NCBI GenBank assembly: GCA_047628655.1
Contig: JBLHVR010000002.1
Coordinates: forward strand, 1-53,723
DNA: 53,723 nt
Direction of reading: 5' to 3'
DNA from: Lentimonas sp.
GTDB taxonomy: Bacteria; Pseudomonadota; Alphaproteobacteria; Rickettsiales; UBA1997
Under the pieces are notes generated by a model. The model saw only the letters and a program-made list of their open reading frames with translations, searched no databases and had not been told where the DNA came from. Below, piece after piece: positions 41,255 through 43,415 of the stretch (positions are counted from its first letter, which is position 1; each line of letters begins with the position of its first letter). Made by a program: the position numbers and the translations under genes.

Positions 41255-43261
41255 TTAAAGTAGATTTTTAAGTAAGTTTGTTGCCACTGCAATTCCGTCT
41301 TGTTTAGAACCGCCACACATGGCTAAATCTGGTTTTCCACCACCGCCTTTGCCGCCAATTTTTTCGGAAATTTGGGGGATTATTTTTCCAGCATGAAACT
41401 TGGAAGTTAAATTTTGGCTAATTGCCAAAACTGCGGAAACTTTTTCATTTTCAGAACCAAAAAAGAGAATGATCGAGTTTTCTTGGTAATCTTTTTGATT
41501 CTTAGTTTCGGTGGCTAAATCGCGAACTTCTTTGGCGTTGGCGCCTTCAAAGAAATGATTAATGAAATTAATTTCACCAATTTTTTGAACAGAAAAATTA
41601 CTGGAATTAGCTAATTTCTCTTTTTTCAGTTTATCAACTTCCTTTTGAAGCACTTTAATTTCACCAATTTTACCCTCGCCAAGCTGATAAATTTTATTTA
41701 CTGCATTTTTCATTGAGGCAATTTCTCCGGCGCTCACAACTTCATTTTCAATGTTTTCATCGCTAAAAAAACTTAATTGGTCAAAGCCTTTTTTGGCGTT
41801 GTGAAATTCGTTTGCAGGCATTTGAACTTCTTCAAATTGCTGTTTAACTTTTAATGATTCAATTAAAGACTGTAATTTTCTTTCCTGAAGCCTTGAATAT
41901 TCCAGCGCAAAAAAACCGGTTTTAGCTTCAATTCTTCTAATTCCAGCCGCAATTCCTTTTTCTGAAATAATTTTAAAAGCACCAATATTTCCAGTAGATT
42001 TGGCATGAGTTCCGCCACAAAGCTCAATGGATTCTCCAATTTGTAAAACTCGCACTACATCGTCATATTTTTCACCAAAAAGCGCCATGGCGCCTTTTTC
42101 TCTGGCCTGCTCAATTGGTAAAATTTCGGTAGTAATTGGGCTGTTTTGACGAATAAGAAAATTGACTAAATCTTCAATTTGGTCCACTTCTACTTGAGTT
42201 AAAGCCTTATTGTGATTGAAGTCGAAAGTGAAGGCAGAATCATCAACATTTGAACCTTTTTGGCTAATGTGAGAACCGAGAACTTGCTTTAAAACAAAAT
42301 GCAAAAGGTGAGTTGCCGAGTGGTTTTGAGACCTAAATTGACGACTGCGATTGTTTACTAGTGCAATTATTTCATCGCCAACTTTAAACTTTCCACGAAT
42401 TTCTAAGGCGTGATGAATGAATAAATCTTCCGCTGCTTTTTTGGCTTCAAAAACATCGATGACATTTTCAAGATTAGAGTAATTTATTAATGCATTTTCC
42501 TTAAATTCAGACTTTAAAATTAAATTACCATCATCACCTTTTTGACCACCAGAAGTTGCGTAAAAAGGAGTTTGATCAAGAATTATTTCAATATTCTTGT
42601 CACTTTCTTTAGCTTCCATAACCTCTTCACCATTTTGCAAAATACTTAAAATTGTGGCAGATGATTTGGTAGATTTGTAACCCAAAAACTGAGTTTTTGG
42701 TAATTTATTTTTCAACTCGAAATAAATGTTGTTGTCTGCGACTTCACCGCTTCCTGTCCAATTTTCTGAACTGCGTTTTTTCTGTTTCTCCATCGCCAAA
42801 TTAAAACCTTCAATATCAACATCAATTTGTTTTTCTTTGAGAATATCTTGCGTTAAATCGAGTGGAAAACCGTAAGTGTCGTAAAGTTTAAAGGCAATTT
42901 CTCCGGAAAATTTGTTAGTTTTTAAGTCAATCTTTCCAATTTCTTCACTTAAAATTTTCATTCCATCGCCAAGAGTTTTTTGAAATCTTTCTTCTTCGGT
43001 TTTTAAAGTGTCAATAATTGTGGCCTGCGCGCGAACTAACTCTGGAAAAGCTTCACCCATTTCAGCAATTAAAGCTGGAACTAGCTGGTGCATTACTGGA
43101 TTTTTAGAGCCTAATTTGTGAATGTGGCGCATGGCGCGGCGCATTATTCGGCGTAAAACATAACCGCGACCCTCATTGGAAGGCATAACACCATCAGCGA
43201 TGATGAATGATGAAGACCGAAGATGATCGGTTATTACTTTGTAAGATGGATTGATTTTCAT
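41255..43261 (-). CDS. alaS: alanine--tRNA ligase lacking the N-terminal ~230-240 residues (no motif 1/2 catalytic core); retains the rest of the aminoacylation domain, the tRNA-recognition and editing domains, and C-Ala/DHHA1
   Basis: It starts [46 protein letters not shown], which aligns to about residue 235 of canonical AlaRS. Editing-domain motifs HSATHLLH and CGGTH are present, and the C-terminus has GGGGKPDLA. An in-frame TAA lies at 43288-43286. Confidence 0.85.
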   Translation of the reverse strand: [668 protein letters not shown]

Positions 43262-43415
43262 TTTATTTAAACTAACAAAGATTGATTAATTATATTTTCT
43301 TTTTTCAAGAGCCCCGTTCTTTCACTCACTTGCCTAAGAATAATGCGCTTCTCAATTGTAATTTTGGGAGAATCGGGTTGTTTTTATTTCTCTAGCATGG
43401 AAAACTCTATTGTCA

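Follow-up and report, generated by a model that had tools for sequence, protein, structure and literature searches.

The contig JBLHVR010000002.1 (assembly GCA_047628655.1), analyzed here as a single 53,723-nucleotide window, carries an alaS gene coding for an alanyl-tRNA synthetase (AlaRS) without a catalytic core. The gene very probably specifies the beta-like subunit of a two-gene AlaRS, assembled non-covalently with an alpha-like catalytic subunit encoded separately. The arrangement is likely to be the first case of a naturally split AlaRS among Bacteria, fixed across a broad Rickettsiales-like clade, with the cut falling where the catalytic core meets the tRNA-recognition domain. In 2023 AlaRS was described as the only synthetase keeping one prototype structure throughout biology, Nanoarchaeum equitans being the only split case mentioned (PMC10036535). 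Full-text literature searches returned no description of a split bacterial AlaRS, in line with the initial annotation of the window, which cited Nanoarchaeum as the known split AlaRS and knew of none in bacteria.

The product of the window gene covers residues 278-868 of Escherichia coli AlaRS, as determined by tblastn and pairwise alignment. Residue 4 of the window protein matches E. coli residue 277/278 (tblastn and the match to PDB entry 3HXU), and about 275 N-terminal residues are thus missing; the initial annotation had set the start earlier, near AlaRS residue 235. Residue numbers of the E. coli reference sequence used here tally with the published positions of N303 and D400 and with 3HXU. 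In the open reading frame (ORF), positions 267-550 of the 552 making up the Pfam profile tRNA-synt_2c (PF01411) are matched, followed by tRNA_SAD (PF07973) and DHHA1 (PF02272). Because motif 3 of the E. coli enzyme (GMGLER, residues 238-243) lies upstream of the point where the alignment starts, the window ORF lacks all three class II motifs. The initial annotation correctly reported motifs 1 and 2 as missing, and erred in restricting the loss to these two. The class II catalytic core expected of an AlaRS, comprising the three motifs and the alanine/ATP pocket, is therefore not found in the window ORF.

Other elements of that annotation were verified on the sequence, namely the intact 668-aa ORF, the 154-nt spacer separating it from the gene upstream, and the in-frame TAA at 43288-43286. 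All three frames of the spacer carry stops, and neither a catalytic-domain remnant nor an intein was found upon three-frame translation of positions 43262-43415. Predicted promoters and terminators in the 40700-44900 interval are no more numerous than in shuffled sequences, and none falls within the spacer. The tblastn search for an AlaRS N-terminus suggested at the outset was run within the window, with both E. coli AlaRS and a clade-specific N-half as queries, and found no N-terminal AlaRS sequence in the 53.7 kb, the best match having an E-value of 2.3.

The features which define AlaRS outside the core are all present: a tRNA-recognition domain bearing the Asn and Asp readers, an editing domain with zinc motifs, and C-Ala. 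The G3:U70 identity pair of tRNAAla is read in E. coli by N303 at U70 and by D400 at G3 (PMC10036535). In an alignment of 64 family members the Asp equivalent (D128 of the window protein) is invariant, the Asn equivalent (N29) is kept by 90% or more of the sequences, and the HxxxH and CxxxH motifs are invariant or nearly so. Judged by invariant columns, the tRNA-recognition domain ranks with the best conserved portions of the C-half protein. Residue Q334 aligns with E. coli Q584. The initial annotation had noted that the editing motifs and the DHHA1 tail are kept, and both are there, with HSATH at residue 314, CGGTH at residue 415, and a Pfam DHHA1 match. The AlphaFold2 (AF2) model of the protein (mean predicted local distance difference test score, pLDDT, 84.8) comprises helical, beta-barrel, editing, linker and C-Ala regions, the last matching the Aquifex aeolicus C-Ala domain 3G98 in Foldseek searches (target-normalized template modelling score, TMt, 0.90).

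The truncated form is shared by relatives. The 120 database proteins closest to the window protein are all 596-735 aa long, at 86-48% identity, and their sources are named, for instance, Rickettsiales, Rickettsiaceae or Alphaproteobacteria bacterium. A recognizable (V/I)IADHLR anchor is found in 119 of them: 116 begin 6-14 residues before the anchor, most often 8, and the remaining three have longer called N-termini. At all the 19 C-only loci from other metagenome-assembled genomes (MAGs) and assemblies a stop lies 4-50 codons upstream of the anchor. A check of the junction in related genomes had also been recommended at first, and the same aminotransferase/alaS-C junction recurs in two independent Joint Genome Institute (JGI) contigs, L081 and L082, the C-half being 86% identical; in both, RNase J comes after the C-half, as it does in the window. 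In these two contigs the tblastn alignment apparently extends upstream; the extension is spurious, its frame being interrupted by stops. The ratio of nonsynonymous to synonymous substitution rates (dN/dS) ranges from 0.08 to 0.16 for C-halves, and is 0.077 over 662 codons for the window gene and its closest relative.

A second family supplies the missing part. The best 120 matches to the clade N-half are all 259-307 aa long, and all 120 keep RxGGKHND (the motif 2 region), FFEMLGNFSFG, GPCGPC, EIWNxVFMQ and GMGLER (motif 3). N-half proteins end 32-50 residues after GMGLER, mostly 34-38, and 17 of the 17 N-only loci terminate 34-47 residues after it. From the ends of the N-halves and the starts of the C-halves it follows that the two abut in the linker at E. 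coli residues 271-279 (TGATDLSNK). At neither boundary is there extra sequence to accommodate an intein or a further docking module. The N-half tail is short and variable, and the C-half starts close to the VIADHLR anchor, at variance with a split-intein gene pair. N-halves exhibit dN/dS values of 0.02-0.08, and both halves are under purifying selection (overall range 0.02-0.16). The N-half model (predicted template modelling score, pTM, 0.84) matches the E. coli AlaRS catalytic fragment 3HXU at a query-normalized score (TMq) of 0.92, and GlyRS-alpha structures at about 0.44-0.54. The neighbours of N-half genes are variable. In L256 867-3264 (GCA_021323225.1) the gene directly follows that of a class I lysyl-tRNA synthetase, in L163 and L164 it lies near trpS and nadA; N-halves being located beside other synthetase genes in some contigs, they may tend to sit among such genes. 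A 260-aa N-half, P0270, was considered as the partner encoded by the window organism, and rejected, as the entry derives from sequencing reads (SRR3989338; source 'SRC', presumably the Soil Reference Catalog).

Separate N-only and C-only genes reside together in four genomes: JAYORG01, JAJTCH01, CAZOKU01 and CAZENB01. In the first, a 239-kb Rickettsiales MAG contig (L003, JAYORG010000001.1) hosts a 269-aa ORF corresponding to E. coli residues 5-284 and a 658-aa ORF corresponding to residues 269-868, on the same strand and 8.8 kb apart, with eight unrelated ORFs in between. In JAJTCH01 (GCA_021323225.1, 'Rickettsiaceae bacterium') contig 4 bears the N-half (264 aa, L256) and contig 1 the C-half (668 aa, L165/L348); their separate NCBI annotations are MCE3255667.1 'alaS' and MCE3255078.1 'alanyl-tRNA synthetase', respectively. 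This C-half shares 64-65% identity with the window protein, belongs to the same subclade, and shows the same alaS-C/RNase J synteny. The halves are on separate contigs also in CAZOKU01 (L207 and L295) and CAZENB01 (L198 and L308). The window organism presumably encodes an N-half of its own, as expected from its clade membership.

Halves were monitored in GTDB species representatives by degenerate DNA patterns, NAGM..FKN[FY]F for the N-half and [YF]K[VI]I[AT]DHLRS...F for the C-half. Counts obtained in this way are lower bounds; together with earlier searches they amount to at least 17 N-only and at least 19 C-only loci, and many full-length genes were found too. A conserved-peptide search carried out with the whole N-half protein hit mostly ordinary alphaproteobacteria, one split locus being among the matches listed. 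Linking halves by the proximity of NCBI accessions worked for GCA_021323225.1 only, most entries having no accession. Pairing N and C proteins through the lengths of their contigs gave no contig in common among the matches listed. Among the explanations initially offered for the truncation, a catalytic part made as a separate polypeptide is strongly supported by the four genomes and by the two complementary families of relatives.

A neighbor-joining (NJ) tree was built on the region present in the split as well as in the full-length proteins (41 taxa, 596 columns, 100 bootstraps). Split C-halves make up one clade in 100 of 100 replicates, the window protein grouping with L081, L001 and L165. 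The clade is nested among full-length AlaRS of low-GC Rickettsiales-like and other alphaproteobacteria. Candidatus Midichloria, an Ecdyonurus endosymbiont of the Rickettsiales, a Holosporales MAG and others have full-length alaS genes; the fission is therefore derived in one lineage, not Rickettsiales-wide. Divergent C-only genes code for proteins of 613 aa (L406, GCA_945862535.1, 6001-7842) and 605 aa (L408, 6001-7818), 44-45% identical to the window protein, and are located inside contigs near VirB4/VirB6 or TrbC. They may denote that the split clade is broader than sampled, or that there was more than one origin. A 262-aa ORF found directly upstream of the L408 C-half was evaluated as an adjacent N-half and discarded, its translation being an unrelated low-complexity protein.

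The data are consistent with the following scheme. The alaS gene would have been broken once, in an environmental, low-GC Rickettsiales-like clade, in the linker after the first helix past motif 3 (E. coli residues ~271-279). The alpha-like protein, ~260 aa long and holding motifs 1-3 and the alanine/ATP site, would make alanyl-adenylate. It is predicted to dock non-covalently on the helical domain of the ~670-aa beta-like protein, probably through the same catalytic/helical interface as in the single-chain enzyme; as neither half has an added interaction module, the association would have to rely on this native interdomain surface. Dimerization of the C-Ala domains may then give rise to an alpha2beta2-like particle. 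The beta-like protein, which spans about 600-690 aa in the clade, would position the acceptor stem, recognize identity elements, bind the tRNA elbow, and edit Ser- or Gly-tRNAAla.

Some considerations weigh against a two-subunit enzyme. The same lack of an added interaction module in both halves is one, and the N-half of the window organism is not on its 53,723-bp contig (tblastn). The complex is predicted from genes and from models of the separate subunits. PMC11392972 cites work in which E. coli N-terminal fragments of up to 368 residues were unable to charge tRNA. Finally, a second, full-length alaS in split genomes could escape the pattern scans, as the counts which these return are lower bounds.

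The two proteins might, alternatively, form no stable enzyme: the ~260-aa protein would charge tRNAAla or minihelices alone, as a urzyme or a mini-AlaRS does, and the 668-aa protein would be a free-standing, tRNAAla-binding trans-editing factor. Nanoarchaeum AlaRS-alpha alone does sustain a weak, G3:U70-independent charging (PMC11392972), and the missing interaction module suits proteins which act separately. Yet the N-half lacks the entire tRNA-recognition domain, the equivalents of both Asn303 and Asp400 being in the C-half, whereas Nanoarchaeum alpha and the Tupanvirus enzyme keep part or all of this domain. By the account of PMC11392972, E. coli fragments of fewer than 442 residues show no aminoacylation. 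Moreover, the recognition domain of the C-half would be without use in aminoacylation, and is nevertheless highly conserved. Separate action is improbable, given the inactivity of E. coli fragments devoid of the recognition domain and the conservation of this domain in the beta-like protein.

Still less credible, and highly unlikely, is a role of the 668-aa protein as AlaX-like or regulatory paralog of a full-length alaS located elsewhere in the genome. The inspected part of the window's genome is the 53.7-kb contig, free-standing editing proteins of the AlaX type occur widely, and the model's editing domain has matches among AlaX structures. AlaX structures, however, cover 146-268 columns of the model in Foldseek alignments, against 679 for full-length AlaRS. 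The AlaX-like derivative proposed by the initial annotation does not fit a protein keeping the whole recognition domain, both readers and C-Ala, and whose model matches full-length AlaRS end to end. In the four genomes the partner found is not a full-length alaS, but an N-only gene whose boundary complements that of the C-half exactly. Strong purifying selection acts on the N-only family and would be needless beside a full-length enzyme, and C-halves hold in the tree the position of the lineage's own alaS rather than that of a divergent paralog.

That positions 43262-43415 are a chimeric or collapsed junction, or that the gene is a pseudogene truncated recently, is effectively refuted: the contig is metagenome-derived, truncation of an essential gene classically points to misassembly, and the unrelated MAG JAIRQL01 does have alaS broken across contig ends, but the junction shared with two independent JGI assemblies, the stops upstream of 19/19 C-only loci having varied upstream neighbours, and the low dN/dS of a gene with all functional motifs intact exclude both misassembly, as the initial annotation had contemplated, and recent decay, which it had already thought not to be apparent. 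In JAIRQL01 (L232, L305) the two contig ends encode E. coli residues 4-87 and 86-855; this is an ordinary assembly break, and an example of a false split.

The gene content of the window (VirB6/TrbL-like protein, sucAB, RNase J, adrenodoxin-type ferredoxin, PstS) fits a Rickettsiales-like organism. Coordinates of the relevant features are reported in Table 1. The RNase J gene adjoins the C-half in L001, L081, L165, L295, L308, L326, L327, L358, L365, L379, L382, L401 and L409 as well, and the gene immediately upstream of the C-half varies across the split clade. No gene is called in L081 and L082 at the position of the PQ-loop protein of the window. The 1771-aa VirB6-like protein is of a kind known from Rickettsiales type IV secretion systems. 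At the position syntenic to that of the 509-aa ORF, L165 features a 516-aa gene, again devoid of Pfam matches, near ferredoxin and SpoU methylase genes. ARAGORN detected no tRNA or tmRNA gene over the 53.7-kb contig.

Table 1. Location of the alaS C-half, of the domains and residues of its product, and of flanking genes in the window
Feature	Position	Strand	Description	Evidence
alaS C-half (beta-like subunit)	41255..43261	-	668 aa + stop; tRNA-recognition, editing, linker, C-Ala; without catalytic core	ORF listing, Pfam
Spacer upstream of the start codon	43262..43415	-	154 nt; in-frame TAA at 43286-43288, 9 codons before the ATG	sequence
Helical subdomain of the tRNA-recognition domain	42761..43249	-	residues 5-167	E. 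coli alignment, match to 3HXU residues 277-437, model helices
G3:U70 reader Asn29	43175-43177	-	E. coli N303; in MPSNEGR	pairwise alignment
G3:U70 reader Asp128	42878-42880	-	E. coli D400; in KLYDTYG	pairwise alignment
Beta-barrel subdomain	42356..42667	-	residues 199-302, between helical and editing domains	AF2 secondary structure; PF01411 up to residue 304
Editing domain	41918..42352	-	residues 304-448	Pfam tRNA_SAD (E = 1.8e-17), alignment, AF2 model
HxxxH, H314-H318 (HSATH)	42308-42322	-	editing zinc motif	alignment
CxxxH, C415-H419 (CGGTH)	42005-42019	-	editing zinc motif	alignment
Long helical linker	41606-41917	-	residues 449-552	AF2 model
C-Ala / DHHA1-like domain	41261..41593	-	residues 557-667; GGKGGG at 636	Pfam DHHA1 565-666, model, Foldseek
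Class I/II aminotransferase (Aminotran_1_2)	43416..44666	-	upstream neighbour; fixes the 5' boundary of the alaS C-half	Pfam
PQ-loop/SemiSWEET-like membrane protein	40932-41249	-	105 aa, single PQ-loop; between alaS-C and RNase J	Pfam
RNase J	39051..40790	-	linked to the C-half across most of the split clade	Pfam
Mito_fiss_Elm1 family protein	37032-38036	-	334 aa; E = 2e-63	Pfam
Giant VirB6-like protein	31708-37023	-	1771 aa; sole Pfam match TrbL/VirB6, residues 1152-1357	
509-aa ORF	46191-47720	+	no Pfam family at E <= 0.001	

Several low-GC MAGs hosting split halves carry odd labels: L001, L217, L225, L244 and L277 are recorded as 'Rickettsia typhi', L198, L205 and L207 as 'uncultured Rhizobium sp.', and P0241 as 'Myxococcota bacterium'. 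The organism names on these records look like mislabels. Several halves are unnamed or have no NCBI protein accession, and one is labelled 'hypothetical protein'; annotation pipelines may treat AlaRS halves as partial genes. As a consequence of such records, estimates of completeness and of pseudogene content in Rickettsiales-like MAGs may miscount an essential marker.

If the two-gene AlaRS is real, a catalytic subunit devoid of tRNA identity determinants operates in this clade, with G3:U70 recognition, editing and elbow binding all provided in trans. The system would represent a modern, convergent reinvention of the alpha/beta layout found in the bacterial glycyl-tRNA synthetase (GlyRS), the closest relative of AlaRS, and a natural experiment on a bare class II catalytic domain working as an autonomous subunit. 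It would also provide a living analogue for the evolutionary link proposed between AlaRS and heterotetrameric GlyRS (10.1101/2023.05.29.542759). A second, independent split at another site would mark the junction between catalytic and recognition domains as a viable fission point, and natural alpha and beta subunits could be used to probe how much of alanylation, identity recognition and editing works in trans.

Comparison with known systems sets the bacterial split apart. AlaX proteins (AlaX-S/M/L) share with the window protein the editing domain and its HxxxH/CxxxH zinc site (Foldseek matches 1V7O, 1WNU, 2E1B and 9IUW). They lack the AlaRS tRNA-recognition domain, of which the window protein has 302 residues, in addition to linker and C-Ala; AlaX structures cover about one fifth to one third of the window model, and the protein is not an AlaX. 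Tupanvirus mini-AlaRS and 'small-AlaRS' are likewise natural departures from the four-domain AlaRS prototype, but are single chains from which domains have been lost, whereas in the split enzyme no domain is lost, all being spread over two genes. Many loci of 'Candidatus Enterousia' and ruminant-gut Alphaproteobacteria MAGs (L289-L404) feature an alaS which aligns to E. coli residues 7-700 only, with downstream sequence present. This suggests an AlaRS without C-Ala in that lineage, which may be linked to the 'small-AlaRS' group (10.1101/2023.05.29.542759).

Bacterial GlyRS (GlyQ/GlyS, alpha2beta2) is similarly made up by a ~300-aa, catalytic-only class II alpha subunit and a large, tRNA-binding beta subunit. 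GlyRS serves a different amino acid and tRNA, and both halves described here are assigned to AlaRS by sequence and Pfam. GlyRS-beta is not known to have an editing domain or C-Ala. The catalytic domain and the ATL domain of bacterial GlyRS are reported as homologous to AlaRS, and glyQ and glyS are usually adjacent or overlapping (10.1101/2023.05.29.542759), whereas the AlaRS halves are 8.8 kb apart or on different contigs. The likeness to GlyRS is best regarded as one of analogy and distant homology, not of family membership.

The leucyl-tRNA synthetase (LeuRS) alpha/beta of Aquifex aeolicus is another normally single-chain synthetase encoded by two genes and assembled non-covalently. It is a class I enzyme, split within the catalytic domain region in a single lineage, unlike the AlaRS split, which spans a broad clade.

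The closest parallel is the split AlaRS of Nanoarchaeota, archaeal rather than bacterial, in which the essential enzyme is also encoded by two unlinked genes and the N-terminal piece contains the catalytic core. In N. equitans both alpha and beta are needed for efficient, G3:U70-specific charging (PMC11392972, PMC10036535). The N. equitans cut corresponds to E. coli residue ~368, inside the tRNA-recognition domain, so that alpha keeps the U70-reading Asn and beta the G3-reading Asp (PMC11392972). The cut described here, at E. coli residues ~271-279, is located ~95 residues earlier and places both readers in beta, a layout different from the Nanoarchaeota type; as a consequence of this earlier cut, the catalytic subunit is left without any recognition domain. 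Judged from the nesting of C-halves within alphaproteobacterial AlaRS sequences, the bacterial split is independent of the Nanoarchaeota split.

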